Positions 9,083 through 64,000 of a stretch of 64,000 nucleotides of DNA are shown piece by piece. The notes under the pieces were generated by a model. The model was given only the letters and a program-made list of their open reading frames with translations, was not told where the DNA came from and did no database searches. The translations under genes and the position numbers were made by a program. Positions within the stretch are counted from its first letter, which is position 1, and each line of letters starts with the position of its first letter. The stretch comes from an uncultured Planctomycetia bacterium (GTDB taxonomy: Bacteria > Omnitrophota > Gorgyraeia > Duberdicusellales > 4484-171). The DNA lies in NCBI GenBank assembly GCA_964629655.1, contig CAZVQU010000001.1, forward strand, positions 292,056 through 356,055, read 5' to 3'.

Positions 9083-10149
9083 AAATAAGCTTTAAGCAAA
9101 GCTGCAGGGTCCATCTTAATGCTTGTTTCTAAAAAACAGGCGTGTGTACAAGCACAATTTTTTATTTTCTCAAACATATCCTGAGCATTAGGAGAATTTA
9201 AAACTTTTTTTAAATCATAATCCGTACTTCGTATATTTCCCACGGCTTTAGTTAACTCACATAATTTTACATCGCCGTTCGGCTCTAAAACCGCTAGGGC
9301 ATTTCCGGCCTGGCATTTAAAAGGAAGCTGTCTGCCTTCAAGAACGCTAGAATAGACCATGTAGAGATACCTCATTTTATTGGTCACCAAAGAACCAAAA
9401 ATTTTATTACTCATTCTCTTTTTGTTCCAAAAAGAATAAAAAGGCATCAATTGTTCTGAAAGGTCTCGCCATTGTTTGGCCGAAGGGGCTGCTAAATCTT
9501 GATCGTAAGGTTTACCCCGCACCGGAGATGGCCCGTGACTGTCAACCGATAACTCATTCTTAATGAATTCAGCCAACATAATCATCTCATTTATATTTAT
9601 GTTATTAACTACTGATATTATATTTACAGTTAAATTATCAAATTTCTCCCTTAAAGGAGCCAGCCTCTCTGTGGTCTTTATGACTTTTTCAAAACTTCCC
9701 TGGACACCTTTAATTTTATCATGCGTCTTTGCAAATCCATCCAGAGGCAAAGAAAGGATGAGTTCAGTATTTGGGCATTTAGCCAATATTTTATCTACAT
9801 AATAGCTTATCTTATCAGAATAGAAACCATTTGTCGGAAGGTGAATAAGGTTAACTCCGTTTTTCCGACAGAATATCTCACATATTTCCGGCAAATCATC
9901 TCTTAAAAACGGCTCCCCCCCGGATAAAAGTAATTTGCTAAACCTACCGAGAGAAAAAGACACTTTGGCAATCTCGTCTATGGTTAGTTCCGCAACATTA
10001 TTCATTGTACTTGCGTTCATATAATCCACATAGAAACATGTCTTACATCTAAAATTACACCGGTATGTTACTGAAAATATCAATTCATCTAACTTGTTTT
10101 TATGATGATAATATCTGGAAAAAGACTGCAGTAATCTAGACAGCTTCAC
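9061..10149 (-). CDS. Radical SAM enzyme with C-terminal SPASM/twitch-like Cys-rich domain
   Basis: CNFRCKTC (CxxxCxxC) near the N-terminus, LLSGGEP glycine-rich SAM motif, and a C-terminal cysteine cluster (CQAG...C..., CACTHAC). Confidence 0.7.
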   Translation of the reverse strand: MKLSRLLQSFSRYYHHKNKLDELIFSVTYRCNFRCKTCFYVDYMNASTMNNVAELTIDEIAKVSFSLGRFSKLLLSGGEPFLRDDLPEICEIFCRKNGVNLIHLPTNGFYSDKISYYVDKILAKCPNTELILSLPLDGFAKTHDKIKGVQGSFEKVIKTTERLAPLREKFDNLTVNIISVVNNININEMIMLAEFIKNELSVDSHGPSPVRGKPYDQDLAAPSAKQWRDLSEQLMPFYSFWNKKRMSNKIFGSLVTNKMRYLYMVYSSVLEGRQLPFKCQAGNALAVLEPNGDVKLCELTKAVGNIRSTDYDLKKVLNSPNAQDMFEKIKNCACTHACFLETSIKMDPAALLKAYFCFEGGK

Positions 10150-14452: not shown

Positions 14453-15409
14453 TCATATTGATTTATATTCTTCACAAAGACGGCAAGTAGAACACAAGTT
14501 TCTCCTTTCGTCCTTTGTTGTCCGCCCCTCCCATATTTGTGAAAGGCTATTCTTTTCCAAATTTCCCACAAATAAATCTTCATTATGATAAGGATTGAAT
14601 CGACAACTGCAAATTCTTGCATATCCATCCCAACTCACCAAACACTCAAACATTCGGAAACAAGGACGGCATCTATACCGCACAGAAGGAGCAAGGCTCA
14701 TGCCGTTTAGAAGATTCTTTTGTGTAATTACCCCACCCCAAACGTAGTATCTTGTTAAAAACTCAACCTTTTTCCTGTCAATAAAGGGCTCAACGTATTC
14801 CTTGTAATCCGGCAAACACAAAACCTCTTTTGTGGGTATATCGCTACGGAAAGCAAGGGTTATATCCGCAATATTGCCAAGATCTTTATTCGCAACAAGA
14901 AGGTTTTTTAATCCTACTAGTAGCTTATCATAGTCTTTACTTCGATATATCCGTTCAAACTTTTCTCTTTTCAAGGGAGCGGTTGAAATAATTATTTTAA
15001 GCCCACTATTGAGGATGATCTGAGGAGAGAATTTGTGCAAAAAAATTCCGTTTGTTCGTAAACAACCACTGGGAAAGTTAAAGGACTTTATTGTTTCAAT
15101 CCTTTTAGAAAATTTAGGATCAACTAAGGGGTCACCCACTAAAGACCCCAGTTGAATAAACTTTCCATCCATTTGTTTATATTCGGTTAGAGCTTTATTA
15201 AATATCTCATCAGACATAAAACCTGTTCCGCGTGTTTGATATTGATATGCGCAAAAAATACAGTTGGCATTACAAATATTGGTTGTTTCAAGATGCAATT
15301 TACCTGGTGGCCTTTTTTCAAGATACTGCCAAGGGGTAAATTTGGTTAGAGTGATAAAGTCTTTGATAACACGTTTCAAATTCAAAAATTTGTGGTTAAG
15401 TAATTTCAT
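14453..15409 (-). CDS. Radical SAM enzyme with SPASM-type C-terminal Cys cluster
   Basis: CNANCIFC (CxxxCxxC); C-terminal CRPCFRMFEC...CSCRF...CSTCRLC cysteine-rich region. Confidence 0.7.
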   Translation of the reverse strand: MKLLNHKFLNLKRVIKDFITLTKFTPWQYLEKRPPGKLHLETTNICNANCIFCAYQYQTRGTGFMSDEIFNKALTEYKQMDGKFIQLGSLVGDPLVDPKFSKRIETIKSFNFPSGCLRTNGIFLHKFSPQIILNSGLKIIISTAPLKREKFERIYRSKDYDKLLVGLKNLLVANKDLGNIADITLAFRSDIPTKEVLCLPDYKEYVEPFIDRKKVEFLTRYYVWGGVITQKNLLNGMSLAPSVRYRCRPCFRMFECLVSWDGYARICSCRFNPYHNEDLFVGNLEKNSLSQIWEGRTTKDERRNLCSTCRLCEEYKSI

Positions 15410-15452: not shown

Positions 15453-17090
15453 TTATTGAATAACTTCTTGTTGCGGTATTTCTAATAACCACCAATCAGG
15501 CGTTTCTCCATAATAAAGTTTTATACCCCTTAATTCTTTTTCGTGATTGCCCCAAGAAAATTTACTCAAAACTTTAAAACCATTTTCTTGCCAGATAGCA
15601 TCTAATTTTGTTCCAGTATCTTGGTAAACAACAATATAGCCAGCTTTCCATTCCTTAATATTCTTAAGTACGGAATGTATATCACGCCCCCAGAAATTAC
15701 GAGCATCTTGATAGTTTGATTCAGCAACAGCCCACCAGTCAGGAATAAAATGAATTCTCTTCTTTGCAGTTATATAAAGCAGTAACTGAAGCAAAGCGCG
15801 GTATCCGTCAAAAATCCTTTCAAGTGCCCCACCGGGATTATTGAAAGCCATAAGAATTCTTTCATTCGGCTTTACAGATACTAGGAAATCCTCCATAGCC
15901 TCTCTAAGCTTCTTAATAGAAAAAGGGTGAGCCTCAGGGACAACATCCAAAACCTTCTTCGTGTATGGAAAAGGAATAAGCAATGGCAGGGGTGAAACAA
16001 CAAGCCAGAAAGAAACAAGAACCAACGAATCTGGAGTTTTAAGCGTGTACATTGTAGCTAAACTAAACATCAGCATATGCATAGACTGCACATCGGCGAA
16101 CCGCGCAAAAGTTGAATTTATTACAAATATAGTTATACCGGCCAAAAATAAGACTGGAATCTGTCTGGTTATCAAATAAAGAATAATAAAAAACTGCGAA
16201 TATAATGCTAAAAAATATACTCTTGCCATAATGGTCTTTAAAGGATAGGTACGCGTATAGCGAGCAGTCTTTCTATGGATCCCTACAGTTTTCATTAAAT
16301 TTAAAGTAGAAAGTTTTATATTCTTGGAAACTAAACAAGGATAGAGATGTATTAGCAACTTCAAACCAGCCGGTAACAAAGCAAGAATAGGAAATAAGCT
16401 ATTACTATTAATTGCACTAACAAGAGAGATAATGCCAGCTATAAATACAACCGTAAAACTGCTAAGACTTGCTAAAAGCCAGGCTACAGCAACAATAATC
16501 CAACTCTCAGTAAATAAGCCATAAAGACCTAAAGGGAAAAAAAGCCAACCCAGAACATTGTAGTTTTGCAAAGCAAAAGTATTTGCATAGAAAGTCGTAC
16601 TAATTGCCGCAAGTGAGATGACAACTATGACCCAATAAAGGTCAGCTTGCTGTAGCCAGGCTAAATGCACGATAAGCCAGCCAAACATGCCAAATAAAAG
16701 AACACCCGCGCTAGCTTTCCAATAAGGACGCAAAGAAAACGACCAATAATAAAACCACCTTGATAAAGGATAATTACCAACCCCAATATAAGAACAAGTT
16801 TCTCTAGATCCATGTCTGGATAAAATTAAAGCAAAAATCCAGTAAGGCAAGTAGCCTAGTCCGGCATAGGGCATAAAATGATGGTAATCCTTATTGCCTT
16901 GTCTTATTAATATCCTGCAACTCCACAAGGCTTTCCCTAGACGTATTGGCGTTGCTACTAAAGCTGTCAAAGGATATAAAATTACCCTTAAGAAGCCAAA
17001 ATATCCAAATCGACTTATGAAATCAGCTAGTGATTTATTCATTTGCATTCTGGCATAAAAAATATCGCGAATTAGCGTATGTGATGACAC
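15453..17090 (-). CDS. Polytopic inner-membrane protein (about 10-12 TM) with a C-terminal soluble domain; possible Wzy-type polymerase or GT-C
   Basis: The first 370 aa are hydrophobic and the last 170 aa hydrophilic. No recognisable catalytic motif; the assignment rests on context only. Confidence 0.3.
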   Translation of the reverse strand: MSSHTLIRDIFYARMQMNKSLADFISRFGYFGFLRVILYPLTALVATPIRLGKALWSCRILIRQGNKDYHHFMPYAGLGYLPYWIFALILSRHGSRETCSYIGVGNYPLSRWFYYWSFSLRPYWKASAGVLLFGMFGWLIVHLAWLQQADLYWVIVVISLAAISTTFYANTFALQNYNVLGWLFFPLGLYGLFTESWIIVAVAWLLASLSSFTVVFIAGIISLVSAINSNSLFPILALLPAGLKLLIHLYPCLVSKNIKLSTLNLMKTVGIHRKTARYTRTYPLKTIMARVYFLALYSQFFIILYLITRQIPVLFLAGITIFVINSTFARFADVQSMHMLMFSLATMYTLKTPDSLVLVSFWLVVSPLPLLIPFPYTKKVLDVVPEAHPFSIKKLREAMEDFLVSVKPNERILMAFNNPGGALERIFDGYRALLQLLLYITAKKRIHFIPDWWAVAESNYQDARNFWGRDIHSVLKNIKEWKAGYIVVYQDTGTKLDAIWQENGFKVLSKFSWGNHEKELRGIKLYYGETPDWWLLEIPQQEVIQ

Positions 17091-17166
17091 CTGGCAAAAT
17101 ATGTTTTTTAGTCATTGTGGCATCTCGAAAACCAATCAAACCTCTTAGTAAACTTATTAAATACAC

Positions 17167-18846
17167 TCATTTTTGGACCCGACTATCAGATGATTTAGGA
17201 CAGAATGAAACCTTGAGGTTGCGTATTTTTATGGATTGCCCGGCACTCTTTATCCCTAGGGAATAAATATCATGTATGACAGAACGCCCATCCGCTAGCG
17301 AAACAAACGGACACCCATTTAATTTTATTACCCATTTCCCTTTTTCCTTTTCTACACATAAGACATGCCAAGCATTTTCTTTATAACTTCCTAAACGACG
17401 CCACCTCAGCCAACGGCACCACGTCAAATTGTAGCGTCCAATTATCTTCTGTAAAAGCATCGACAGACTGCGTTTAGTCTTAACCCATCCTACCCGCAAA
17501 TATATCTTGCTGTGTTCAAACCCTAATCGAATTCCCTCAACTGTATTTAAAGTGCTTATATCGTCACCCAAAACTATAAAAGCCGAACCCTTATCAGCCG
17601 ACTCAACAAAAATATCAAAAGAGATCCCTTGCAGAGAACCTTGATTAAAAAAAGAAAAATATATTTGAGGTGGGAATAAACTATCTGCGCTTTGACGGAG
17701 ACAGACAATTTCAGATTCTCCCTCACCTGCCGGCAACAAATTCACATCGCGCGGCTGGTCAGATACGATACGAAAAGAATACTTACTCCGGGCATCTCTA
17801 ATCCACCCTTGAGCTAACCCAACCACACCACCTTTATGACTAGGGCCCCTTCGAGGAATACCCATAAGAAAAACCCGCATGGGATTACGTCCTTGTTCTA
17901 TATCTTCTTTTGCTACTACAACTCCCTCTATGCGACCAGAGAAAGGTCCATCTAAGGGACTTCCACTTGGCAAGATAAAAGGATTTCCAGGGTGTTCCCG
18001 CCAATCTTTGAAATCTTTTGTAAACGCAAAGCCAATTGCATAAAATCCAGAATTATAATGGGCATTAAAAGCAAGCATGTATATTCCTTCCTCCTCTAAA
18101 ACAGTAATTCGCGGATTAGCAACCCTTTGTACAATCCAAGATTTAACCTGGTTAGCAGAAAAAATAGGACATCCTTTGTTTAACGGCTTAAAGTGCTCTC
18201 CATCTTTTGAAATAGCCCCAAATATCTGAATATAGCCAAAACTGGCTGATATGCCTTCAAATGTCAATAGATAACGACCGTCGAACATTTGTACTACATT
18301 TGTAACGGCCATTAATGTTCGCCCTTTTTTAGGAAAGTCTGCAAAATCAGCCTTTGTTAAAAGCGGTTTCGAGCCAACTCGCTCAAAATTGATGCCGTCC
18401 CTACTCAAGGCTAAACCAATCCCTTCATCTTTATAAATACCCCTTGCTCCTCGATAATAAAGTCGGTAAATACCCTCGTCATCCCGCACTACCCAGGGTG
18501 TAGTGGCTATAGGACTATCCCATGCATCTTTAGGGGGAATAAGTACAGGTCTTTCGGGTGAACGATGCCAAGTTCGGCCTTCATCATGGGATACGGCTCT
18601 GCCTATTCCTTGGCAAAGACCGCTTTTATGGCTGCCGGTATAATAAAGGACTAAGGCGCCTTTTTCTCGAAAGAGATAACCGCGACTGTCCACAAGCAAG
18701 GCCGGATCCCGAACACCAAATTCGTCCCATGCGCCTTTACTAGCACGCTTTAATACAACTTTAGGTCTATCAATCCACAACCCTTCCAAATTCTTTGGGC
18801 ATTCTAAATTTGATTTAATCAAAAATGGGGCCGACTGCCAATCCAT
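17167..18846 (-). CDS. Asp-box/BNR beta-propeller protein with C-terminal LamG/concanavalin-like domain (sialidase- or glycoside-hydrolase-like fold); cytoplasmic, with no signal peptide
   Basis: Perfect Asp-box SHDEGRTW, plus degenerate SRDGINF and SKDGEHF. C-terminal WHVLCVEKEKGKWVIKLNG is a LamG-like pattern. Confidence 0.4.
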   Translation of the reverse strand: MDWQSAPFLIKSNLECPKNLEGLWIDRPKVVLKRASKGAWDEFGVRDPALLVDSRGYLFREKGALVLYYTGSHKSGLCQGIGRAVSHDEGRTWHRSPERPVLIPPKDAWDSPIATTPWVVRDDEGIYRLYYRGARGIYKDEGIGLALSRDGINFERVGSKPLLTKADFADFPKKGRTLMAVTNVVQMFDGRYLLTFEGISASFGYIQIFGAISKDGEHFKPLNKGCPIFSANQVKSWIVQRVANPRITVLEEEGIYMLAFNAHYNSGFYAIGFAFTKDFKDWREHPGNPFILPSGSPLDGPFSGRIEGVVVAKEDIEQGRNPMRVFLMGIPRRGPSHKGGVVGLAQGWIRDARSKYSFRIVSDQPRDVNLLPAGEGESEIVCLRQSADSLFPPQIYFSFFNQGSLQGISFDIFVESADKGSAFIVLGDDISTLNTVEGIRLGFEHSKIYLRVGWVKTKRSLSMLLQKIIGRYNLTWCRWLRWRRLGSYKENAWHVLCVEKEKGKWVIKLNGCPFVSLADGRSVIHDIYSLGIKSAGQSIKIRNLKVSFCPKSSDSRVQK

Positions 18847-18916
18847 AATGCTCCTTATTATTCACCATCGTTTTCCATGCTAGGCTGCTTTCTCCCTGCG
18901 CGATTAATTAGTATTC

Positions 18917-20356
18917 TTAAATTGTTGACTCGCTTTTCAACAATTTAAAAATATTATAATTGTATTTCTTAAGATAAACTATCGGGATCGAGACAAAAAT
19001 CAAAAATAGAAATAACAAAACAGACAATAAAATACTAAGTATACGATAATCCATAATTAATAAAAGCGTAACCGCACAGCACCCTAATAAAAACTGAAAA
19101 ATAAAAATACTTAGCGGCAAACCAAAACTGTGCCTTTTCTCACTTACGATTACGGCCATTATATTCCTTGATAACATAGCAAGCATTGTTGCGATACTAG
19201 CTCCCACAATCCCCCATATCGGTATAAAAATAAAATTTAATAAAATATTTAAAATTGCACATATCAACACAATAAGCGACAATGCCCCTCTATTTTCCGA
19301 CATAATAGTGCCCAGTTGTGTAATCTGCAAAAACCCATAAAAAATAAAAGATATACTCAGTATTCCGATCACTTTATAACTACCATAATAAGCCACTGGA
19401 ACAATAACCTTAATCAAAGGTGCGCATAATGATACTAATATTGCTAAGGATAGGCCCAGGCCCAGAAATATTCTGGAAACAAAAATGAAAAGCTTCTTAT
19501 TATCAATATTTTTCATTGCAATCGGCCACCAAGCTGTACGAAATACTGTCGAATAAAAAAATAAAATAAAAGCACATCTATAGCCTAAGGAATAAATTCC
19601 TACGTATTCCAACCCCATAAAATATTTTATGCACCATCTATCGGTAATGTTAATTATAACTACGCCCAATGTCGAAGGAACTAATGGCAACCCGAATTTT
19701 AAAAGTTTTGGCCACCATTTAGTATGCAATTGAGACCAATTTAAATATCTCTTTATGCTTCGCCAGGCCAAAAAAAGAGCTACGACCGCAGAAACGCAAT
19801 AGCCGGTATAATATCCTAAAACTCCCATCTTGAAAAAAATGATTAATACTATGGCAACTGTTGCCAACAATACATTCCTGCTGGCCCTTATAGCTATATA
19901 CTTAATCGTTTGATGAGTATATCTTAATATTTCTATAAATTGGGATTGAAAGATGAAACAAAAAAATCCGATAAAAGCAATTAAAAAAAACCCTTTACTT
20001 AATTTACCGTCAAAAAAATAGATATTTAGTTTTGATGACAAAAATATTGCAAAACACATTACAATCACACTAATTATCAGCCGTAATTGTAGTATTGAAG
20101 TCACTAATTTTTTTTGCTCAAGCTTATCATTTTTTATTGAAAAAAAGAAATACGACTGTGATGATAGCAAACCGAAATTGCATAAAATTCCTATAAGCAT
20201 TATTATCGTGCCCATCATCTCTATTGTTCCATATTCATATGTTGTTAAATACCTTGTATAGACTGGTATTAATACAAAACTAATTAACATTGCAAATGCA
20301 TCGCCAACGCCGTAAACAAAAGAATCCTTTGCTAATTGCCTAATATTTTCTCTCAT
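18917..20356 (-). CDS. Wzx-type oligosaccharide flippase (MOP superfamily polysaccharide biosynthesis protein)
   Basis: About 12-14 TM helices, N-terminal ...AKDSFVYGVGDAFAMLISFVLIPVYTRYL... typical of Polysacc_synt/Wzx. Confidence 0.7.
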   Translation of the reverse strand: MRENIRQLAKDSFVYGVGDAFAMLISFVLIPVYTRYLTTYEYGTIEMMGTIIMLIGILCNFGLLSSQSYFFFSIKNDKLEQKKLVTSILQLRLIISVIVMCFAIFLSSKLNIYFFDGKLSKGFFLIAFIGFFCFIFQSQFIEILRYTHQTIKYIAIRASRNVLLATVAIVLIIFFKMGVLGYYTGYCVSAVVALFLAWRSIKRYLNWSQLHTKWWPKLLKFGLPLVPSTLGVVIINITDRWCIKYFMGLEYVGIYSLGYRCAFILFFYSTVFRTAWWPIAMKNIDNKKLFIFVSRIFLGLGLSLAILVSLCAPLIKVIVPVAYYGSYKVIGILSISFIFYGFLQITQLGTIMSENRGALSLIVLICAILNILLNFIFIPIWGIVGASIATMLAMLSRNIMAVIVSEKRHSFGLPLSIFIFQFLLGCCAVTLLLIMDYRILSILLSVLLFLFLIFVSIPIVYLKKYNYNIFKLLKSESTI

Positions 20357-20367
20357 CCTATAAAGTC

Positions 20368-21555
20368 TTATCTTTTCTGCTTTTTCCTTTTTTCATGAAT
20401 CCATCCTAATATACGGAAAGCCGGTAACAAAGGAAAAATAAAAAGCCATCGAAAGATTAAAGCTAAAACAGGTAAACAACATGTTTCATAGTTCCATATT
20501 TTTTTGATCCTTTTTCTATTATTAAAAATAAAAGCCTCTACCAATACAATTTCAAATTTTGTTAATTCTTCTTTCCAAGCCATTACTCTGCTTTTGTCGA
20601 CAACATCTCCGGTAATCTTTCGGGCTGTAATGACTTTGGAATTTTGATTAATAATAGTTGGCAATGTCATGTTGGGCGAAAAAGATATGCCAATAAATTT
20701 GCATATATTGCGCATAACATCTTCCGTATTAGTACAAAAATCTTCGTATCGTATAACTTTTACGCGTTCTAATCCATAGCTCGATAAATATGAAATCAGC
20801 ATTTCATAGATATTATTTATAATGCTAGCATCTTGCATTGTGTAGAATAATTTTTTAAAAAAATTATATTTCTTCCTCTTTTTAGCAAAAGTAAAATGCC
20901 CTTTTCTACTCGCCATCATTCCTTGGGGACTTCTTACTGTAAAAAGAACCTTTCCCCTTGGAAACATGCTGATAAAATCAGGTATATAATTATTCGGCAC
21001 CCGCGATTTTGAAGTAAGAGAAGCAGTCGGAGTGCTTTCTGAGTGAAATGCCCATGATTTTTTATCTTCTATACCACTTTTATCTTTTATCGCCTCTATC
21101 GCAGCTAATACAGTCTGTTGCATAATATTCTTTGGTGAAATTTTATTTTCTTGAGTAATTTTCTCTAAATTTTCCAACAACTGCCTGTGGTAAATATCAA
21201 AAGAGAAATGATCCTTCCAGTTTTCTATTCCTCTTAAATACCCACGAAGCTTTATCTTGCAAAAAGGTAGATCTATATATCCTTGTGGAATTGGAATATA
21301 TTCATTGTTGCAGTCAAAATTAAAAAGTTTCCTTTCCGTCTGTTGACCAATAAATTTGCTTCCTAAAATCCAATCCATTACCATATGTTTCCCAGAAGCG
21401 TATTTTCGTTGAGTTAATAAACGAAAATAAGGAATGTCCGGAAAAACAAACATCTCTTTATTGCCATCTAAAAGTTCACTGAACAACGTTCCGCCTGTCT
21501 TCATAGGTGTTGATATTAAAACTGCGTTTTCAAACCAATCACAACTATCTGTCAT
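20368..21555 (-). CDS. Sulfotransferase-family protein (Sulfotransfer_3-like), C-terminally membrane-anchored
   Basis: 5'-PSB-like ISTPMKTGGTLF, 3'-PB-like TVRSPQGMMAS, and VKVIRYEDFCTNTEDVMRNICKFIGISF matching the YEDLxxDPxxx...FLG hallmark; C-terminal TM helix. Confidence 0.5.
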   Translation of the reverse strand: MTDSCDWFENAVLISTPMKTGGTLFSELLDGNKEMFVFPDIPYFRLLTQRKYASGKHMVMDWILGSKFIGQQTERKLFNFDCNNEYIPIPQGYIDLPFCKIKLRGYLRGIENWKDHFSFDIYHRQLLENLEKITQENKISPKNIMQQTVLAAIEAIKDKSGIEDKKSWAFHSESTPTASLTSKSRVPNNYIPDFISMFPRGKVLFTVRSPQGMMASRKGHFTFAKKRKKYNFFKKLFYTMQDASIINNIYEMLISYLSSYGLERVKVIRYEDFCTNTEDVMRNICKFIGISFSPNMTLPTIINQNSKVITARKITGDVVDKSRVMAWKEELTKFEIVLVEAFIFNNRKRIKKIWNYETCCLPVLALIFRWLFIFPLLPAFRILGWIHEKRKKQKR

Positions 21556-21585
21556 TTTCTGCCTCTTTTACCCGACGGTGTTAAT

Positions 21586-22401
21586 TTAGCTTTCTAAATA
21601 TCCCCATCTTTTTAAATATCCCCCAAACCTCTCATTAACATCATCCAGAACTATTTTGGGTAAACCTTCTTTAAATCCTCCATACCCACCTTTACGAAAA
21701 TGAGTCTTAGGCATATCTTTTTTCCCTGACTCTTTTAATCTGCAGATCATATTATCTTTAACAACCTGTTTTGCTTTATCTTCATCAAAATCTATTCTCC
21801 ACCGGGTAAAAAGTCTTCGTAACTCACTAACTGGATCATCCCACAACATTTCATATTTTATTAATGGAACTCCGCTACTAACATATTCTTCTGCGTGATT
21901 CAACCAATTATAAAAGAGAGTCTTGTAAGACAAAAAGTATTCAAAGTAAAATGTTTCAATATCATCAAAAACACAATGCGGATGTAACCTTTTATAATAA
22001 TCCGTTTGTGAAAAATAATAGTAGGAAACAATGATATCCCTTATGTCACGTATAATATAAACTACAGAAATAAAATCCTTTCTAAAAGCCGTCATTGGAA
22101 ATAAATTATCATGGGTCATGGTTAGGGCTGTTTTACCAACATCTTTCCAAGGACCAATAATCTCTAAGTTGAAATAATCTGACAATAAAAAACAAAGCCA
22201 CTTATTGCCTGATTTTGGCAACCCCACAATTAATACTTTTCCGTTCTTTCTTTTTCTGAAATCTCGATTAACAGAATACCCATATAGGTTATATTTTTTT
22301 GTAAACGAAGGAGCGTAAGGCATTATGTATTTGCCTATGACAGGAATACGATTAAATAGCTGTTTAGTTTTTGACAATCTGTAGTATACTTCAAGTCTCA
22401 T
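21586..22401 (-). CDS. PAPS-dependent sulfotransferase
   Basis: GLPKSGNKWL (5'-PSB P-loop), IIRDIRDIIVSYYYF (3'-PB RxxRDxxxS), IKYEMLWDDPVSELRRLF (YEDL..DP block). Confidence 0.65.
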   Translation of the reverse strand: MRLEVYYRLSKTKQLFNRIPVIGKYIMPYAPSFTKKYNLYGYSVNRDFRKRKNGKVLIVGLPKSGNKWLCFLLSDYFNLEIIGPWKDVGKTALTMTHDNLFPMTAFRKDFISVVYIIRDIRDIIVSYYYFSQTDYYKRLHPHCVFDDIETFYFEYFLSYKTLFYNWLNHAEEYVSSGVPLIKYEMLWDDPVSELRRLFTRWRIDFDEDKAKQVVKDNMICRLKESGKKDMPKTHFRKGGYGGFKEGLPKIVLDDVNERFGGYLKRWGYLES

Positions 22402-22491
22402 TTCTTAACCCCCTTTTGTAGTATAATTCGAATCTAATTTCTTAGCCCCCTATTGAAGTTCTAGCTCGTTCCATAGAACTAGATTTTTTGA

Positions 22492-23469
22492 TCAGGTTTT
22501 TACCCGCCATAATTCCTTTAATATACTTCTATTTTGATCAGCAATTACACCAAATCCCAAAAAAAGTAGACTAAAAATGGCGAGCAATAAAGCTACTAAC
22601 GCCATGTATATGCTTACCTCTTTTATCAATAATCTGTAGATGCCATAACAAAAAAATAAAAAGCTGGTTGCCATTAGAAATAAACTAATTGCCCAGAAAT
22701 ATTTGATAGGCCGAGCTAAAAACATAAATTTTAAATGAGTTCTTAGCAACTTTGTTGTACGTGAACTAGATTTTCTCCTTATTTCTTTATTTCCTGACCT
22801 GTCTACATGCTTCTTCCATTCTAAATTTGCTGGAATCTCGCCTATCCTATAATTCAATGCATAAAGTTTTAACAATACCTCCAAATGAAACTCCTTGCCT
22901 CTTTCTCTTATATGAACTCCCTGGATAACTTCCCGCCAATATCCTCTTGTCATACCGGTATTCATGCTTATTCCTGGTACAAAAAATAATCTTATAAGGA
23001 AATTTCCTATTTTGCTTAACAAAATTCTTCTAAAAGGGACATTCTTGTATCCTCCTCCGCAAAGATTGGGAGATGCTACCACACAATCTAAACTAGGCTC
23101 CTGCTCAAATTTATTTACTATTTTATAAACAATATCCTCTCCCCAGCTCAGATCAATTTCGGTAGTTACAATTATATCTCCGGTTGCTTTTTCAATGCCC
23201 TTCTTCAAGGCATACCCCCTTCCATGATTGTAAGGATAGGTAATCAGAACTATATCCTCTCTATCCTTAACTATATTTCTTACTACATTGAAGCTTTCAT
23301 CCTTACTACCATCATCTACAAGAATAAGCTCCCAGGGATACTTGAGATTCGACAATAGATTAACAAATTTCTTAACAGTATCCTCAATAATGGACTGCTC
23401 ATTGTAATAAGGGCAAACTACTGAAATTTTTTTTATCTTGTGTTTATTTAATTCTAATATTTCTGGCAT
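22492..23469 (-). CDS. GtrB/ArnC/DPM1-like GT2 polyprenol-phosphate glycosyltransferase
   Basis: KISVVCPYYNEQSII..., ELILVDDGSKD, C-terminal two TM helices (FWAISLFLMATSFLFF... and ALVALLLAIFSLLFLGFGVI). Confidence 0.7.
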   Translation of the reverse strand: MPEILELNKHKIKKISVVCPYYNEQSIIEDTVKKFVNLLSNLKYPWELILVDDGSKDESFNVVRNIVKDREDIVLITYPYNHGRGYALKKGIEKATGDIIVTTEIDLSWGEDIVYKIVNKFEQEPSLDCVVASPNLCGGGYKNVPFRRILLSKIGNFLIRLFFVPGISMNTGMTRGYWREVIQGVHIRERGKEFHLEVLLKLYALNYRIGEIPANLEWKKHVDRSGNKEIRRKSSSRTTKLLRTHLKFMFLARPIKYFWAISLFLMATSFLFFCYGIYRLLIKEVSIYMALVALLLAIFSLLFLGFGVIADQNRSILKELWRVKT

Positions 23470-25078
23470 GTTTCCTCCGCTTTTTTTTAGAGCTTCTGCT
23501 ATCGCTAATAGGGTTTTTAAAAATACTAGACATCAAACGTAATCCCATTTTTGCCTTACGCCGAAATTCAGACCACTGCTTAATCTTTAAAATTTCTCTT
23601 ATGATATACCCTGGGCGAAAATAATAGCGACGAACCGCTTCATTTCTAAAGCTAATGAGTTCACCCAAGTGGAGATTTTCTTCATACACCTCTGGTATGC
23701 AAAAATTTGCTGTAGGCCTTAAGGCAAATTCCCTCCAGTAGTCATAGCTAATTATTCCTTTGCTCAAGGCCTCAGTGTACATCTCTGTGCCTGGATAAGG
23801 AATAGTAATAGAAAATTCAGTATAGTCAGCATCCAAGTCAAGGGCAAAATCGATGCTCCTCTTTATATCCTTAACAGTTTCGCCTTTGTTCCCAATCATA
23901 AAATAGGTAAGGACAGAAAAACCCTTTTTCTTTGCTAAACGGACTGCCCCACTTGCTTGATCAGTTGTGATATTTTTTTCCATTAATCCAAGTATCCGAT
24001 TCACCCCTGATTCAATACCATAATGAATTCTTAAGCAACCACTTCTTTTCATCAAGTCTAGAAGTTCAGGATCTGTTGAATTTACTCTATCTCTTATTGA
24101 CCAAGTAAGTTTTATTTTTCGTGTGATAAGTCCTTGACATATATCCTTCGTGCGTTTTTTTGACCAAGTAAAAGTATCGTCGTAAATCTCGACTTCTTTT
24201 ATTCCAAGGTCATGTATTCTTTCAAACTCTTTAATTACATTCTCAGCAGATCGACATAGCATCTTCTGGTAATTCATTTTGCAAAAAATACATTTATGCG
24301 GACAACCTCGGCTGGTAAGCATTGTGGTTACAAAATTAGACTTGCCAATTACAGAGGTATAACAGCTTAAAGGCAAAAGTGACCTATCCGGAATAGGTAA
24401 ATCGTCAAGATTCTTTTGAATAAAAAACCTCTGTTCTCCATTTTTTACCCCATATTTCTTAAAATGTAATCCGGGTAAATCATTATCAATCTTGTAATTA
24501 GCAAACATATTACATAAATACGTGAACGGTATTTCACCATCGCCAACTATTATGCTATCAACATGCTCAGCAGAAAGTGTTTCTTCAAGATAAATATTCA
24601 CATGAGGCCCACCATAGCAGATATGAACCTCAGGCATAAGATTTTTAATCAGGCGTCCTAAATGGAATGCCGGATACCACCAATCTGTCCAGGCTGAAAT
24701 CCCAACAACATCTGGTCTATGCACCTCCACTTCTTGGATACATTCCTCAAGATTAAACCCTTGGGCCTGAGCATCCAATACTCTCACCTGGTGAGGAGTT
24801 TTTTCTTTCAATAAGGTTGCGATATATAAAAGCCCCAAAGGTGGTTTGAAACCAATACTTTCCCCATGTTTGCTCATATGAGAGAGTAATGATCTTACCC
24901 CTCCAATATTAGGAGGCTGAATTAACATCACACGAATCGGCCTTGTTGCTGTTTTCCATTCGGATTTAAGGCATGCCTGATGTTCTCTGCTTCTAAATGA
25001 TACTGGATCCAGGTTCATCTTTGATATTTCCTTTCTATATTTATGAATTGTAAGTAATGCTACAAGCTTTACTGACAA
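23444..25078 (-). CDS. Cobalamin-binding (class B) radical SAM enzyme
   Basis: N-terminal B12-binding-like Rossmann region (IRVMLIQPP...LGLLYIATLLKE), then TSRGCPHKCIFC (CxxxCxxC). Confidence 0.75.
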   Translation of the reverse strand: MSVKLVALLTIHKYRKEISKMNLDPVSFRSREHQACLKSEWKTATRPIRVMLIQPPNIGGVRSLLSHMSKHGESIGFKPPLGLLYIATLLKEKTPHQVRVLDAQAQGFNLEECIQEVEVHRPDVVGISAWTDWWYPAFHLGRLIKNLMPEVHICYGGPHVNIYLEETLSAEHVDSIIVGDGEIPFTYLCNMFANYKIDNDLPGLHFKKYGVKNGEQRFFIQKNLDDLPIPDRSLLPLSCYTSVIGKSNFVTTMLTSRGCPHKCIFCKMNYQKMLCRSAENVIKEFERIHDLGIKEVEIYDDTFTWSKKRTKDICQGLITRKIKLTWSIRDRVNSTDPELLDLMKRSGCLRIHYGIESGVNRILGLMEKNITTDQASGAVRLAKKKGFSVLTYFMIGNKGETVKDIKRSIDFALDLDADYTEFSITIPYPGTEMYTEALSKGIISYDYWREFALRPTANFCIPEVYEENLHLGELISFRNEAVRRYYFRPGYIIREILKIKQWSEFRRKAKMGLRLMSSIFKNPISDSRSSKKKRRKHARNIRIK

Positions 25079-25084
25079 TATATA

Positions 25085-26503
25085 CTATCTAATTGCAGTT
25101 CTAATAAAAGCATATATAGCCATTATAAAGCGTCTAACATCTTTTAATGATCGCAATCTCCTCAGATGAGCCCAAACAATCTTCGGACGCAAATAAAACT
25201 TTTTAAAAGCTAATTTAGAAAAATGAGTGAGATCTTTTCTCGTAAACCCTTGAGGAACGAAATTTATCGTTAAATTATTCATTTTATTCCAATCTAAATT
25301 AACTTTTCCATGTTGCGCTGCCATCTGATACACCTCTGTGCCTGGATAAGGAGTAAGAAATGTCTGCTGAAAATAATCTAAATCGGCATCAAGAATAAAC
25401 TCTAGCGTTTCTTCAAGCGTCTCTTTAGTCTCCCCCACGTACCCAAAAATAAAATTACCTCGTGTCATGATATCCGCTTCTTTCGTCCACTTTAGCGCCC
25501 GACTTATCTGATCAATAGTAATATATTTTTTCATAGTCCCCAAAATTTTAGGACTACCACTTTCAATCCCATATTCTATTTGCCAACACCCAGCTTTCCT
25601 CATCAATTGCAGCATTTCTGGACTAACCATATTTACTCGCGCGCAACAACTCCAACTTATATTGTATTCTTTTTCAATGAGAATTTGACAGATTTGCCTT
25701 AGCCTTTTTGGGTCAGTTACAAAATTGTCATCGTAAATAAGTAATTCTTTGATACCATGGTTAGTCATCAAATGTTCAATCATTCGAATAACATAATTAG
25801 CACTATAAGCTCTGAACTTTTTCCCAAAAACACTCGTATCGCAAAACGTACAACTTCCTGGACAACCTCTAGAGGTTAAAACAGCAGTAGATTTATCTGA
25901 AGTAGTTCCTATTATAGACATATGATAAGGATTGGTAAGTGATGGCAATAAGTCCCATGCTGGAAAGGGCAAAAAATCCATATCTACTTCGGATTCTCTA
26001 ATATTTGTTCTGAAAATATTATCATTTTTACGGAAAATAATCCCTTTGACCTCCGCCAAATCTCTTTTTTTATCTACTAAGCAATCTAAGAGTTCGATAA
26101 AAGTTTCTTCTCCCTCCCCAATAACACCAATATCAAATTGAGGAAATAACTCAAAAGTTTCTTCAGGCACAGCAGTAATATGAGAACCTCCAATAATTAT
26201 TTTTAAATCCGGATTAGATAACTTGATGGATTTACCAACTTCAGCGGCTGCATGAACTGAAGAAGTGGTAGCTGTAACCCCTACTAGGTCAGGATGTTGA
26301 GCAAAAATATACTCAGCTGTAGACTTTAGAGACAGTTTCTGTGCATAAGCATCAATAACAGATACGGAATGACCTTGTTGTCTAGCTACTGCAGCTAGCA
26401 GTAAGAGTCCTAGCGGCGGGCTAACACTATCTACCGCAGAAAGATCCCAGTCACCGTATAAACCATCAAAAGATAAAGAAGGATTAACTAAACAAATATT
26501 CAT
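25085..26503 (-). CDS. Cobalamin-binding (class B) radical SAM enzyme
   Basis: N-terminal B12-binding-like region (MNICLVNPSL...PPLGLLLLAAVARQQGH), TSRGCPGSCTFC radical SAM motif. Confidence 0.75.
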   Translation of the reverse strand: MNICLVNPSLSFDGLYGDWDLSAVDSVSPPLGLLLLAAVARQQGHSVSVIDAYAQKLSLKSTAEYIFAQHPDLVGVTATTSSVHAAAEVGKSIKLSNPDLKIIIGGSHITAVPEETFELFPQFDIGVIGEGEETFIELLDCLVDKKRDLAEVKGIIFRKNDNIFRTNIRESEVDMDFLPFPAWDLLPSLTNPYHMSIIGTTSDKSTAVLTSRGCPGSCTFCDTSVFGKKFRAYSANYVIRMIEHLMTNHGIKELLIYDDNFVTDPKRLRQICQILIEKEYNISWSCCARVNMVSPEMLQLMRKAGCWQIEYGIESGSPKILGTMKKYITIDQISRALKWTKEADIMTRGNFIFGYVGETKETLEETLEFILDADLDYFQQTFLTPYPGTEVYQMAAQHGKVNLDWNKMNNLTINFVPQGFTRKDLTHFSKLAFKKFYLRPKIVWAHLRRLRSLKDVRRFIMAIYAFIRTAIR

Positions 26504-26518
26504 ATCCTGCGCTTAGTG

Positions 26519-27610
26519 TCAAAAACCTTTTAATATCTCCGTAATTCTTAACGCTGTCTTACCATCCCATTTATCAGGAACAATTCCTTTTTTGACCTTT
26601 CCTCTCAAAATATCTGTAATAACATCTGGTAACATATCAATTTCTTCATCCTTTATTAAAACATTCGTTCCTAACTCAATCGTTACCGGTCTCTCTGTGT
26701 TATTCCTTAATGTAAAACAAGGTTTACCAAGCGCTGTTGTTTCTTCCTGCAATCCACCACTATCAGTTACAACTGCAACAGCATCTTTCCATAAAAATAA
26801 TGATTCCAAATAGGAAAGTGGCTCTAAAGAATATATAGTAGGAGGCGTATCTAATTGAAACTCCTCCAAATTATTTCTGGTACGTGGATGGATGGAAAAA
26901 ATTATAGGGGCGATCTTGGAAACACTTTCTAGAACCCGCAAAAGTTTACTGAGTTTATTTTTGTCATCTACATTAGCAGGCCGATGTAAAGTTAAATAAA
27001 TATACTTTCCTAACTTTTTTTTCAATGGTGCTGAAGAAAAATTAAAATGAGAACTTTTCAATCTGTCTAAACCAAAAATAAGTGAATCGATCATAGTATT
27101 GCCAACAAAAAATATGTTATTAGGGTTCTTACCCTCTTTAATAAGGTTCTCTACGCCAGCTTTCTCAGTTACAAAAAGAAAATCTGCAATACTATCAGTT
27201 ACTCTTCTGTTAATTTCCTCAGGCATACTAATATCGAAACTTCTCAATCCGGCTTCAATATGAGCTACCTTTATCCCAAGTTTCTTTGCGGTAATAGCGC
27301 TGGCTATAGTTGAATTAACATCCCCAACAACGATAACCAAATCCGGAGCTATTTTCTTTAATACTTTTTCTAAAGAAATTATAATCTTCGCAATCTGCTC
27401 AGCATGGCTACTGCTTCCCACCTTTAAATAATAGTGAGGTTTTGGTATCTCTAAGTCATCAAAAAATACCTTGCTCATATTGTCGTCGTAATGCTGGCCA
27501 GTATTCACAATTATGGCTTTAAACGCTTTTGTTTCATTAATTGCCCTTACAATAGGGGCGATTTTCATAAAATTAGGCCTTGCCCCGCCGATAAAAACTA
27601 AAGTCCTCAT
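26519..27610 (-). CDS. UDP-N-acetylglucosamine 2-epimerase, non-hydrolysing (WecB-like), second copy
   Basis: MRTLVFIGGARPNFMKIAPIV..., HIEAGLRSFD, EEINRRVTD. Divergent from the copy at 1984..3069. Confidence 0.8.
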   Translation of the reverse strand: MRTLVFIGGARPNFMKIAPIVRAINETKAFKAIIVNTGQHYDDNMSKVFFDDLEIPKPHYYLKVGSSSHAEQIAKIIISLEKVLKKIAPDLVIVVGDVNSTIASAITAKKLGIKVAHIEAGLRSFDISMPEEINRRVTDSIADFLFVTEKAGVENLIKEGKNPNNIFFVGNTMIDSLIFGLDRLKSSHFNFSSAPLKKKLGKYIYLTLHRPANVDDKNKLSKLLRVLESVSKIAPIIFSIHPRTRNNLEEFQLDTPPTIYSLEPLSYLESLFLWKDAVAVVTDSGGLQEETTALGKPCFTLRNNTERPVTIELGTNVLIKDEEIDMLPDVITDILRGKVKKGIVPDKWDGKTALRITEILKGF

Positions 27611-27630
27611 AAAATATCTATTTAATTAAA

Positions 27631-29520
27631 TTAATTCTTTTCTTGGTCGATAAATGTCCTGAACCAAAGCTCGATCGACAAAAGAGAGTATATCTTATTT
27701 GCTCGCACATAATCATACAGAGTATCTCTCGACCATCGAAAATGAGAATCTAATAACTTTTTGATGTATCGAACATTAAATATTCCTCTCTCTTTTATTC
27801 TCTTGCTAGTTAATATATCAAAAACAAAATCTCGCAACTCTTTTTTGAACCAACCTGCTATAGGAGTGGGGAAACCCATTTTAGGGTGTTTATAAAATTC
27901 TTTAGGAAAAACATCTTTCATCATGGCTTTAGTCAAATATTTCAGCTCATTATTGTATAGCTTATAGCGATAGGGAATTCGCGCGGAAAGCTCAACCATC
28001 TCATTATCACACATCGGCATTCTACTCTCTATAGAATGAGCCATTCCTACCTTGTCTTCCTGTATAAAGAGAGTGGGTAGGTAGGTTTTTAAATAAAGGT
28101 AGAGTGTCTGTTCAGTGCAAGAAAAATTCTTGCCCTTTAAATATTTATCTTCTAAATTCTGCGCAGGAGAATAGCCTTGGACTTGCTTCAAAAATTCAGG
28201 AGTGAAAAGCTTGCTTCTTTGTCGTTTATTAAACATGACAAAAAGTCCATATTTAACCTCGTCAAACAGTAAGGGGCAAAAGGAAAAATAAAGAACTTTC
28301 CAAATCTCATCCGGCCTATTTTTCCAAAAGAATCGCAAAAAGCTTGAAAAATCATTCTTCAAAAGATCTTTATAAAAAGAAGCTTTGTATACCTGGTATC
28401 CAGCAAATAACTCATCTCCCCCGTGACCGGTTAAAACTACTTTTACATGTTTTGATATTTCCTTGGCAACAATATAGTGAGGAAACGCTCCAGAACCCAA
28501 TGTTGGCTCATCCAAATGATACATAACCTTTTCGATATTTTCCCTGAAATCTTTCGCGGTTATTTGAATTTCAGTATTTTGTGTATCAGAGAATTTTTCG
28601 AAAGTTTTGGTAATATTTCTCTCATCATATCTTTTACCCTCAGCAAAATACCCAGTAAAAGTTTTTAAAGGGTAATCTAAAAAATGCGGAGCAGAAAAGG
28701 CTACGCTTGAAGAGTCAAACCCTCCACTTAAACAACTTCCTATTTCCACATCGCTAACCAGATGCCGCCTTACTGATCTTTTAAAAGTATCTTTATAAAT
28801 TTCTGAAGCTTCGTTGATATCGCTAAAAGAATATCGATTATTAAAGTCCAGATCCCAATATCTCTTAAATTCCAAACAACCATTATGAATTTTTAAAAAA
28901 TAACCAGGAAGAAGCTTGTAAATATCTTTAAAAAATGTTTTTTCGTCAATGGTATTTTGAAAAGTTGTAAAGTCTACAATAGTATGCAAATTAGGAGCTC
29001 TCTCGACAGACGGATAAAGCAAAATGGCCTTAATTTCCGATGCCCATACAAATACGCCATCTTTATGCCAGTAATAGAGCGGTTTCATGCCAATTCTGTC
29101 GCGGACAAGATAAAGTAAATTTTTATTTCGATCATAAAGAGATATGGCAAACATCCCGCTTAAGCGTGTAAATACGTTCTCGCCCCACTCTTCATATCCA
29201 TGAATAATCACTTCGGTATCAGATTCTGTAGAAAACTTATGTCCATCTTTAATAAGAATCTTCCTTAGCTCCTGGTAATTATAGATTTCACCATTATAAG
29301 CTATTACAATCGATGCATCCTCATTAAACATAGGCTGTCTACCTTTCTCTAAGTCAATGATAGCCAAACGCCTATGCCCTATTAAACAATGACTATCTTC
29401 GTATGCGCCTTCACCATCTGGGCCTCTATGCTTCAGTAAATCCGACATCTTCCTTAAAACGATTTTATCGTTTCGGCCAATTAATCTGCTGGATTTAAAT
29501 ATTCCTACTATGCCACACAT
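27631..29520 (-). CDS. Asparagine synthase (glutamine-hydrolysing)-family amidotransferase (WbpS/AsnB-like)
   Basis: N-terminal MCGIVGIF (Ntn Cys2 glutaminase), SGGFDSS PP-loop ATP pyrophosphatase motif (CLSGGFDSSSVA), 629 aa. Confidence 0.8.
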   Translation of the reverse strand: MCGIVGIFKSSRLIGRNDKIVLRKMSDLLKHRGPDGEGAYEDSHCLIGHRRLAIIDLEKGRQPMFNEDASIVIAYNGEIYNYQELRKILIKDGHKFSTESDTEVIIHGYEEWGENVFTRLSGMFAISLYDRNKNLLYLVRDRIGMKPLYYWHKDGVFVWASEIKAILLYPSVERAPNLHTIVDFTTFQNTIDEKTFFKDIYKLLPGYFLKIHNGCLEFKRYWDLDFNNRYSFSDINEASEIYKDTFKRSVRRHLVSDVEIGSCLSGGFDSSSVAFSAPHFLDYPLKTFTGYFAEGKRYDERNITKTFEKFSDTQNTEIQITAKDFRENIEKVMYHLDEPTLGSGAFPHYIVAKEISKHVKVVLTGHGGDELFAGYQVYKASFYKDLLKNDFSSFLRFFWKNRPDEIWKVLYFSFCPLLFDEVKYGLFVMFNKRQRSKLFTPEFLKQVQGYSPAQNLEDKYLKGKNFSCTEQTLYLYLKTYLPTLFIQEDKVGMAHSIESRMPMCDNEMVELSARIPYRYKLYNNELKYLTKAMMKDVFPKEFYKHPKMGFPTPIAGWFKKELRDFVFDILTSKRIKERGIFNVRYIKKLLDSHFRWSRDTLYDYVRANKIYSLLSIELWFRTFIDQEKN

Positions 29521-40424: not shown

Positions 40425-40454
40425 TTCTTTCTCCCTATTAATCCGCTAAAAAAC

Positions 40455-43996: not shown

Positions 43997-44015
43997 CCTC
44001 CCCTATTAAGCACCT

Positions 44016-45236: not shown

Positions 45237-45292
45237 GCTTTAAATATTAAAATATCTTTACTATCGTTTCAAATTTGTTTTGCTTCATATCC

Positions 45293-46084: not shown

Positions 46085-46091
46085 GCCATAA

Positions 46092-51408: not shown

Positions 51409-51420
51409 ACATAGTAAGTT

Positions 51421-52494: not shown

Positions 52495-52495
52495 A

Positions 52496-53617: not shown

Positions 53618-53671
53618 AATACTACCTCCTACAGCTTTAGATCCAAGAATCTACACCTAGCATTAGCTAAA

Positions 53672-55830: not shown

Positions 55831-55930
55831 TTTGAGTTACCTATAAAGTGCGTTAAACGTACAAGTTTAGCCCTTTCATTCTATAACTATGCAGGATTGA
55901 GCCGAACTGTAGGGACTTGGAATCGGGCAA

Positions 55931-63978: not shown

Positions 63979-64000
63979 TGTACTTTCTTTACCAAGATTT

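Follow-up and report, generated by a model that had tools for sequence, protein, structure and literature searches.

The 64,000-nucleotide stretch of DNA analysed here (referred to as the window) comes from an uncultured bacterium and encodes, directly beside each other on the minus strand, two proteins of the sulfotransferase fold, designated ST-A (21586-22401) and ST-B (20368-21555). With a probability of roughly 0.78, both would act in O-sulfation dependent on 3'-phosphoadenosine 5'-phosphosulfate (PAPS) during the Wzx-dependent assembly of a glycan at the cytoplasmic face of the inner membrane, an assignment that draws on their sequences, on structure models and on analogy with described gene clusters. 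The surface polymer of this organism is very probably sulfated. A sulfated bacterial glycan had already been predicted by a first-pass annotation made from the sequence of the window, and this prediction is sustained by family scores, conserved residues, fold models, synteny with Wzx and glycosyltransferase genes and the presence of an adenylyl-sulfate (APS) kinase gene in the same gene island.

Domain and motif content of ST-A and ST-B

Both proteins clear the Pfam thresholds of the sulfotransferase families. ST-A (271 amino acids, minus strand), of the soluble cytosolic SULT type, scores 60.2 bits on PF00685 (E 2.7e-16), well above the gathering threshold of 22. ST-B (395 amino acids, minus strand), a Sulfotransfer_3-type protein resembling CurM-ST and the tyrosylprotein sulfotransferases (TPSTs), is detected by PF00685 (46.1 bits; cutoff 22) as well as by PF13469 (46.2 bits; cutoff 27). 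NCBIfam provides no model for either protein, nor for a third sulfotransferase-fold protein, ST-C, that is encoded outside the window and described below. The first-pass annotation had reported two adjacent PAPS-type sulfotransferases at exactly these coordinates, and family thresholds, residues and fold all agree with it. It had also reported the 5'-phosphosulfate-binding (5'-PSB) and 3'-phosphate-binding (3'-PB) motifs in both proteins, and these are indeed found: PKSGN (residues 62-66) and RDIRDIIVS (118-126) in ST-A, PMKTGGT (17-23, with K19-T20-G21-G22-T23) and VRSPQGMMAS (207-216) in ST-B. The key lysine and serine residues of the 5'-PSB, which the annotation had singled out for verification on a proper alignment, are present. 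A third block, given there as YEDL..DP for both proteins, is shared in its first part only, as 'YE' occurs in ST-A (KYEMLWDDP) and in ST-B (RYEDF), while the 'DP' part is seen in ST-A and missing from ST-B. Based on these features, ST-A and ST-B are predicted to be genuine, active sulfotransferases, an assignment to which sequence and structure models both contribute.

In ST-A, a SULT C-terminal motif (FRKGGYG, 235-241) completes the set. An alignment of the ST-A family (A1; 23 sequences) reveals as invariant K63-S64-G65, R118, D119, R121, D122, S126, H234 and R236-K237-G238-G239. The candidate catalytic base, H97, is conserved in at least 90% of the same sequences and ends the strand formed by residues 92-96, as the histidine does in the 'THLP' motif of the SULTs; pairwise alignments put H97 at an offset of two residues relative to the SULT histidine. 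The family profile of ST-A recovers cytosolic SULTs (E ~1e-14) and aligns block for block with SULT2A1, pairing GLPKSGNVW with TYPKSGTNW, YLMRDIRDIIVS with YLMRNPRDVLVS, and FRKGGYGNYKN with LRKGVSGDWKN. Compared to human SULT2A1 and mouse SULT2A8, ST-A has the same fold and the same four PAPS-contacting blocks, namely PKSG(T/N)xW, the putatively equivalent histidine that ends the strand before the 3'-PB, RxxRDxxVS and RKGxxGxxK. Nonetheless, the identity is only 16-21%, ST-A carries an extra N-terminal extension of approximately 50 residues and, unlike these SULTs, it is bacterial and encoded in a glycan locus. The AlphaFold (AF2) model of ST-A has a mean predicted local distance difference test score (pLDDT) of 85.3 and a predicted TM-score (pTM) of 0.84. 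When this model is compared with the Protein Data Bank (PDB) using Foldseek, the best 50 matches are all sulfotransferases, most of them solved with PAPS or with 3'-phosphoadenosine 5'-phosphate (PAP). Foldseek assigns a probability of 1.0 to the sulfotransferase-fold PDB matches of both models.

The AF2 model of ST-B reaches a pLDDT of 92.2 and a pTM of 0.90, and every significant PDB match is a sulfotransferase-fold, PAP(S)-binding enzyme. At the profile level, the ST-B family aligns with CurM-ST (E 7.5e-22), the olefin-synthase sulfotransferase OLS-ST and TPST1/2, with E values ranging from 7.5e-22 to 1e-18. The aligned parts comprise the P-loop, which corresponds to PRSG(S/T)T in CurM-ST and the TPSTs, and the subsequent LLDGHP...PDE segment; the 5'-PSB, this LLxGHP...P(D/E) segment and the 3'-PB/YEDL region thus have counterparts in all of these enzymes, and the fold is the same. 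D40 of ST-B occupies the column of the glutamate in the 'PPE' of CurM-ST. G21, D30, P39, Y122, R208, S216, E271 and P299 are invariant in 32 full-length relatives, and position 19 is a lysine or arginine in 30 of the 33 sequences. ST-B differs from CurM-ST, OLS-ST and the TPSTs by an insertion of approximately 130 residues that separates the two PAPS-binding blocks and presumably forms the acceptor site, by a C-terminal hydrophobic helix and by the loss, in its close clade, of a His32/Glu41 pair (see below). The context differs as well: ST-B is encoded among genes for glycan synthesis and not in a setting of polyketide off-loading or protein sulfation. Close relatives of ST-B are scarce, as a full-sensitivity search of 1.84 billion representative sequences yields only eight at E <= 1e-30 and 56 at E <= 1e-10.

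The possibility that ST-A and ST-B are tandem or recent duplicates was considered and rejected, since there is no pairwise similarity between the two. Their sequences rather point to two different lineages that have been recruited side by side.

As put forward in the first-pass annotation, one of the two proteins appears to be anchored in the membrane by its C-terminus. In ST-B, residues ~356-386 form a hydrophobic segment with a Kyte-Doolittle maximum of 2.24 over 19 residues (CCLPVLALIFRWLFIFPLLPAFRILGWI, followed by HEKRKKQKR), and the model renders the tail as one long helix (362-394). This C-terminal helix (residues ~356-395; 20368-20490, minus strand), delineated by hydropathy and model, is a probable membrane tether. 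All eight nearest relatives have it and none of the more distant ones does; ST-A has no comparable C-terminal hydrophobic segment. Relatives of ST-B of about 650 amino acids (P0045 and P0160-P0163) have their hydrophobic segment in an internal position, followed by an extra domain of around 260 amino acids for which Pfam gives no match; this internal segment bears on the question whether the anchor spans the membrane.

Gene neighbourhood and PAPS supply

About 55 genes, all in one array on the minus strand, make up the window, whose G+C content is near 0.36. Because all genes lie on the minus strand, the two sulfotransferase genes are located upstream of wzx in transcription and not directly downstream of it, as the first-pass annotation had it; wzx begins 11 nt past the ST-B stop codon. 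The Wzx-type flippase (18917-20356; 479 amino acids) is recognised by PF01943 (79 bits) and counts 12 hydrophobic segments in its hydropathy profile. On the other side, ST-A is preceded by a GT2 glycosyltransferase with a C-terminal membrane segment (22492-23469; PF00535, 91.6 bits). The intergenic gaps between GT2, ST-A, ST-B and wzx amount to 90, 30 and 11 nt, respectively. Both sulfotransferase start codons are preceded by purine-rich ribosome-binding sites, which for the ATG of ST-A is a Shine-Dalgarno-like GGGGG, and none of these gaps contains a minus-strand terminator-like site. Given the short gaps, the ribosome-binding sites and the absence of such terminators in the gaps, we read the four genes as a single putative transcription unit. 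A promoter scan was uninformative in this AT-rich DNA (35 sites versus 24 expected).

Further upstream in transcription follow two radical S-adenosylmethionine (radical-SAM) enzymes with a B12-binding domain (23444-25078 and 25085-26503; PF02310 and PF04055), a WecB-type non-hydrolysing UDP-N-acetylglucosamine 2-epimerase (26519-27610; TIGR00236, 297.6 against a cutoff of 210.15) and an AsnB-type amidotransferase (27631-29520; TIGR01536, 479 against a cutoff of 267). Downstream of wzx lie a GH130/GH43-like protein of 559 amino acids (17167-18846), for which only weak GH130-type NCBIfam matches are obtained, and a polytopic membrane protein of 545 amino acids (15453-17090) with about nine hydrophobic segments and a soluble tail of around 170 amino acids. 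All of these genes are on the minus strand.

This arrangement recurs in distant relatives, and we regard the synteny as the decisive evidence for the predicted role in glycan synthesis. A relative of ST-B with 37% identity (P0045) is encoded together with AsnB-like, B12-radical-SAM, GT2 (332 amino acids) and Epimerase_2 proteins, a 553-amino-acid GH130-like protein, an APS kinase, a 521-amino-acid protein and Wzx, which is the same gene set as in the window at 15453-29520, except that the kinase is close by. In three marine metagenome loci (L030-L032), the order is an ST-A-like gene (48% identity), a B12-radical-SAM gene and an ST-B-like gene (60%). For each of the two nearest relatives of ST-A (P0003 and P0004), the next gene downstream encodes Wzx and the locus holds another sulfotransferase; one of these loci has the order B12-radical-SAM, sulfotransferase, Wzx and 521-amino-acid protein. 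In locus L034, a B12-radical-SAM gene adjoins the sulfotransferase gene and a 521-amino-acid protein follows Wzx. An AsnB-like gene directly precedes the sulfotransferase gene in L007, L010 and L014, an Epimerase_2 gene is nearby in L005, L006 and L010, and more distant relatives of ST-A, in metagenome-assembled genomes (MAGs) of Bacteroidota and Alphaproteobacteria, reside beside AsnB-like and WecB-like genes. The counterparts of the 559- and 545-amino-acid proteins thus accompany the sulfotransferase/Wzx module in distant lineages (the P0045 contig and L034). Two tandem genes of the ST-A family also occur on a contig of a Methanosarcinales MAG (L011:1729-4192), so that this family crosses the boundary between bacteria and archaea.

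The supply of PAPS was assessed over 86 kb of contiguous DNA, comprising the window plus 18.5 kb upstream and 3.9 kb downstream. The extensions derive from contigs of public short-read assemblies that match the window at 100% identity wherever they overlap it, which at the upstream end is over 7.8 kb. The first-pass annotation had suggested a search for PAPS biosynthesis genes elsewhere in the genome, and the outcome is divided: a cysC-type gene is found in the island, while neither cysDN nor sat is found in the 86 kb. The encoded APS kinase (P0046; 196 amino acids) has the P-loop GLSASGKTT and scores 141 bits on the NCBIfam apsK equivalog TIGR00455 (cutoff 138.7), and all its top matches are adenylyl-sulfate kinase models. 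Its gene is located around 8 kb beyond window position 64000, i.e., about 49 kb upstream of ST-A in transcription, in the same one-strand island; the contig that carries it is 100% identical to the window over the 7.8-kb overlap. In a protein database, the kinase, ST-A and ST-B are all assigned to one 762-kb NCBI contig. The named relatives of the kinase belong to MAGs of Omnitrophota, Parcubacteria and Thermodesulfovibrionales, but at approximately 50% identity they are too remote for a phylum to be derived from them. An origin from anammox or granular sludge, for which sulfated and sialylated extracellular polymers have been reported, was also considered and dropped, as nothing connects the window with such organisms. 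The committed step to PAPS is hence predicted to be encoded in the island itself. ORFs (open reading frames) with a PP-loop were considered as CysD candidates and discarded, as they are WbuX amidotransferases.

A third sulfotransferase-fold gene begins before the APS kinase gene ends, with an overlap of 17 nt at the kinase stop. Its product, ST-C (403 amino acids; L020:616-1827, minus strand, corresponding to ~70705-71916 in extended window coordinates and thus outside the window), is distantly paralogous to ST-B (24% identity; E 1e-10). The 5'-PSB of ST-C is degenerate (FGHCGIDYL), with histidine in place of the P-loop lysine and aspartate in place of threonine, and glycine is found at the position of the 3'-PB serine, while the invariant arginine and the glutamate of the YE block are kept. 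ST-C may be non-canonical in catalysis or donor.

An IMPase/CysQ-like phosphatase (38750-39499, minus strand) had been proposed as a possible means of removing inhibitory PAP. Its membership of the IMPase family stands (PF00459, 155 bits), but its likeness to CysQ does not. The NCBIfam models for FBPase/IMPase (122 bits), SuhB (116 bits) and HisN (106 bits) all outscore CysQ (TIGR01331; 64.9 bits versus a cutoff of 228.8), and in the PDB the IMPase structure 5zhh (152 bits) is favoured over the CysQ structure 3b8b (41 bits). A particular likeness to CysQ was therefore rejected, although an IMPase-like enzyme may, judging by sequence, still act on PAP. The gene overlaps by 11 nt with a phosphoglycerate-dehydrogenase-like gene (39489-40424) and belongs to a sub-block (38750-47033) that further encodes SPASM-type and B12-binding radical-SAM enzymes, a GFO/IDH/MocA oxidoreductase, a TagF-like glycerophosphotransferase, a CTP_transf_3 cytidylyltransferase and an FkbM methyltransferase. 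Because of this overlap and of the radical-SAM, TagF-like and cytidylyltransferase genes in the block, the phosphatase probably falls outside the sulfation module, and its context fits a side pathway for a phospho-sugar or polyol better than PAP recycling. As a whole, the sub-block resembles a route to a CDP-activated phospho-polyol or acid side chain, with a chemistry similar to that of teichoic acids.

Proposed glycan assembly and competing readings

In the assembly route that we propose, the neighbouring glycosyltransferases would first assemble a sugar unit on a polyprenyl carrier. The sugar possibly originates from UDP-N-acetylmannosamine via the WecB-type epimerase and would then be amidated by the AsnB-like enzyme and methylated by the B12-radical-SAM enzymes. 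Soluble ST-A and membrane-tethered ST-B would each place a sulfate on a different hydroxyl, with at least the second step of PAPS synthesis provided by the APS kinase encoded next to ST-C. Wzx would then flip the sulfated lipid-linked unit, which may end up in a surface polymer such as an O-antigen, a capsule or a protein glycan. From sequence and neighbourhood we infer that the acceptor is a glycan, that it is lipid-linked and sulfated before the flip, and which sugar receives the sulfate.

A number of observations count against this route. The acceptor is assigned from gene neighbourhood alone, and the closest relatives of solved structure are small-molecule SULTs in the case of ST-A and CurM-ST and TPSTs in that of ST-B, with no carbohydrate sulfotransferases among them. 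The APS kinase clears its cutoff narrowly and is encoded about 49 kb away from the ST-A/ST-B pair, and an ATP sulfurylase (cysDN or sat) is lacking from the 86 kb surveyed. The His32/Glu41 pair of the wider ST-B family is replaced by Asn32 and Ile41 in ST-B and its nearest clade, which makes the catalytic base of ST-B uncertain. Finally, the charged tail that follows the hydrophobic helix of ST-B does not fit a simple tail-anchor topology. As PAPS is cytoplasmic, the catalytic domains of ST-A and ST-B must face the cytoplasm; such an orientation, combined with the basic tail, suggests that the ST-B anchor lies in the plane of the membrane or re-enters it rather than spanning it.

The alternative that survives best, while still unlikely, is a three-component side branch. 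The GT2 protein would be ArnC-like and make a polyprenyl-monophosphate sugar, ST-B and ST-A would sulfate that single sugar, the Wzx-like protein would flip it, and the polytopic protein of ~520-545 amino acids would be a periplasmic GT-C-type transferase that grafts it onto an exported polymer. The best NCBIfam likenesses of the GT2 protein are indeed polyprenyl-phosphate sugar synthases (ArnC, PgfS, PpgS and AglJ), although all of them score far below their equivalog cutoffs. A GT2, a sulfotransferase, Wzx and a polytopic protein of about 520 amino acids with a soluble C-terminal domain also recur together on the P0045 contig and in L034. Yet, the 545-amino-acid protein itself displays neither a GT-C signal nor any other family in Pfam (E up to 10), NCBIfam or a PDB sequence search. 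The main chain could be served by other parts of the island, which holds separate Wzy-like and Wzy_C genes and an ABC exporter, but Wzx could equally be the flippase of the main repeat unit. If such a side branch does operate, it would constitute a previously undescribed system, and the polytopic protein would represent a new family of periplasmic glycosyltransferases. Besides the proteins named, its conserved unit would take in the GH130-like protein and, in one relative, an APS kinase.

We consider it improbable that the acceptor is something other than a sugar, be it a lipid, a small metabolite, a tyrosine in a protein or a hydroxyacyl or amino-acid group attached to the glycan, the position in the island then reflecting decoration chemistry or coincidence. 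The idea follows from the solved relatives, which for ST-B include CurM-ST and OLS-ST, with sulfation of beta-hydroxyacyl chains, and the TPSTs, and for ST-A the small-molecule SULTs; the FabH-like and SDR (short-chain dehydrogenase/reductase) genes and a 98-amino-acid ORF in the island moreover suggest an N-acyl substituent. However, this structural likeness holds at the level of the general fold only (TM ~0.4-0.65; 12-21% identity), the acyl genes are about 35 kb distant, and the synteny with Wzx, GT2 and nucleotide-sugar enzymes is kept across distant lineages. Even a sulfated substituent on the glycan would still yield a sulfated surface polymer.

In the O-methyl-phosphoramidate pathway of Campylobacter, a Cj1415-type kinase makes a 3'-phosphorylated nucleotide donor. 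A similar role for the APS-kinase homologue, with the sulfotransferase-fold protein(s) moving another group, would agree with the degenerate 5'-PSB (histidine for lysine) and the 3'-PB glycine of ST-C, with a kinase score only 2 bits above the apsK cutoff and with the many methyltransferases and cytidylyltransferases of the island, but it is very hard to reconcile with the full canonical PAPS-binding set kept in ST-A and ST-B, with kinase top matches that are exclusively adenylyl-sulfate kinase models and with 86 kb in which no glutamine kinase, PEP (phosphoenolpyruvate)-utilising enzyme or gamma-glutamyl hydrolase is seen; to our knowledge, no sulfotransferase-fold enzyme uses a donor other than PAPS.

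Known systems and the remainder of the island

The sulfation of lipid-linked glycan units by ST-A and ST-B, as proposed above, has its closest precedents in two described loci. The xss cluster for synechan in Synechocystis sp. PCC 6803 encodes two sulfotransferases of distinct subfamilies, XssA and XssE, within a Wzx/Wzy cluster (PMC8205485). According to the model for synechan, the repeat unit is modified enzymatically while it is lipid-linked and still on the cytoplasmic side, ahead of its flipping, and the sulfated exopolysaccharide was chemically verified (PMC8205485). PF00685 and PF13469 are also the families by which sulfotransferase genes were traced in that study (PMC8205485). The island likewise has two sulfotransferases of PF00685/PF13469 in a Wzx/Wzy-type cluster, a likeness at the level of gene content and Pfam families. 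On the contrary, xss is located on a cyanobacterial megaplasmid, has a dedicated XssQ/R/S regulator and has a chemically verified product, whereas the island extends over at least 86 kb, is rich in radical-SAM and nonulosonic-acid genes and includes a membrane-tethered sulfotransferase and its own APS kinase.

The combination of PAPS-synthesis and sulfotransferase genes inside a polysaccharide cluster is described as a hallmark of sulfated polysaccharide synthesis (PMC11641403). The island shows this hallmark for sulfotransferases and cysC, not for cysDN. In Vibrio sp. KMM 8419, an 80-gene locus contains three sulfotransferase genes and cysNDC, including a second copy of cysC (PMC11641403). 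One of these sulfotransferases is located beside Wzx in the O-antigen part, and the main capsular polysaccharide (CPS) is exported by an ABC/Kps system (PMC11641403). Both loci are large and have several sulfotransferase genes, a cysC gene and one sulfotransferase gene adjoining Wzx, but the Vibrio locus has a complete cysNDC and polymers of solved structure, while the island has cysC as the only one of these genes found and is known from its genes alone. For Cobetia marina KMM 1449, a sulfated CPS with a solved structure has been reported (PMC11766843). The first-pass annotation called sulfated polysaccharides rare in bacteria; this is fair, but it overstates the novelty, since cluster-encoded sulfotransferases have been described before (PMC8205485, PMC11641403). 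The novelty is modest and has two parts. The rare clade of ST-B carries a membrane tether, and B12-radical-SAM enzymes and two proteins of no family belong to a module that recurs, so far in uncultured organisms only.

Sulfate esters confer a strong, pH-independent negative charge on surface polymers and can affect metal binding, hydration, and phage and immune recognition. Sulfated bacterial polymers are also of biotechnological interest as animal-free materials similar to glycosaminoglycans. Only a small number of glycan sulfotransferases from bacteria have an assigned substrate; this locus offers two divergent enzymes, which sit with a flippase in a recurrent, portable module. The combination of two sulfotransferase families, B12-radical-SAM, Wzx and cysC may serve as a genomic marker for sulfated glycans in uncultured bacteria.

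Other parts of a Wzx/Wzy-type pathway are also encoded in the island. Apart from Wzx, there is an initiating enzyme of the Bac_transf family (222 bits) just beyond the window start, and the putative polymerase/ligase genes comprise one for a Wzy_C protein (87.5 bits) and one with a weak Wzy_C match (34175-35935). The island also encodes the ABC exporter and many glycosyltransferases.

The high load of radical-SAM genes noted in the first-pass annotation is evident, with eight such genes in the island, seven of which are in the window, an unusually high number for a glycan locus. Those in the window (9061-10149, 14453-15409, 23444-26503, 40455-42917 and 60026-61465) comprise four B12-binding and three SPASM-type enzymes; one more is encoded upstream (L024:123-1214). 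The class of B12-binding radical-SAM enzymes includes C-methyltransferases, and the B12-binding members found here score best on methyltransferase- and BchE/HpnJ-type models, all below cutoff. Their sequences suggest C-methylated or otherwise radical-modified sugars.

Genes for nonulosonic acids are found in the window (50710-56736 and 45293-46084) and upstream of it (L024:4497-7727). They include two NeuB-type genes, of which the upstream one is a short form of 236 amino acids and the other belongs to the window, four CTP_transf_3 cytidylyltransferases, all in the window except for one upstream, a NeuC-like epimerase and a PglD-like acetyltransferase. The cytidylyltransferases together with the NeuB-type genes indicate multiple putative nonulosonic-acid pathways in the island. 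Similarly, three WbuX amidotransferases (one in the window, two upstream) and an upstream amidase suggest sugars decorated with acetamidino or amide groups. A FabH-like ketosynthase, a 98-amino-acid ORF and an SDR between an aminotransferase and a PglD-like gene (57873-58856, 56841-57548 and L020:14691-14987) suggest a short hydroxyacyl N-substituent on an amino sugar, for which the 98-amino-acid ORF is possibly the carrier protein.

Some minor observations concern gene calls and occurrence. The 559-amino-acid protein at 17167-18846 gives faint GH130/GH32/GH43-like signals. The TTG/GTG starts of the ORFs at 23444-25078 and 15453-17090 are probably set too far upstream, as public gene calls on identical DNA give 524 and 529 amino acids instead of 544 and 545, respectively. 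Finally, DNA that is 100% identical to the island occurs in assemblies of three separate run series (SRR243024xx, SRR81464xx and SRR318027xx), so the same near-clonal organism recurs in those samples.

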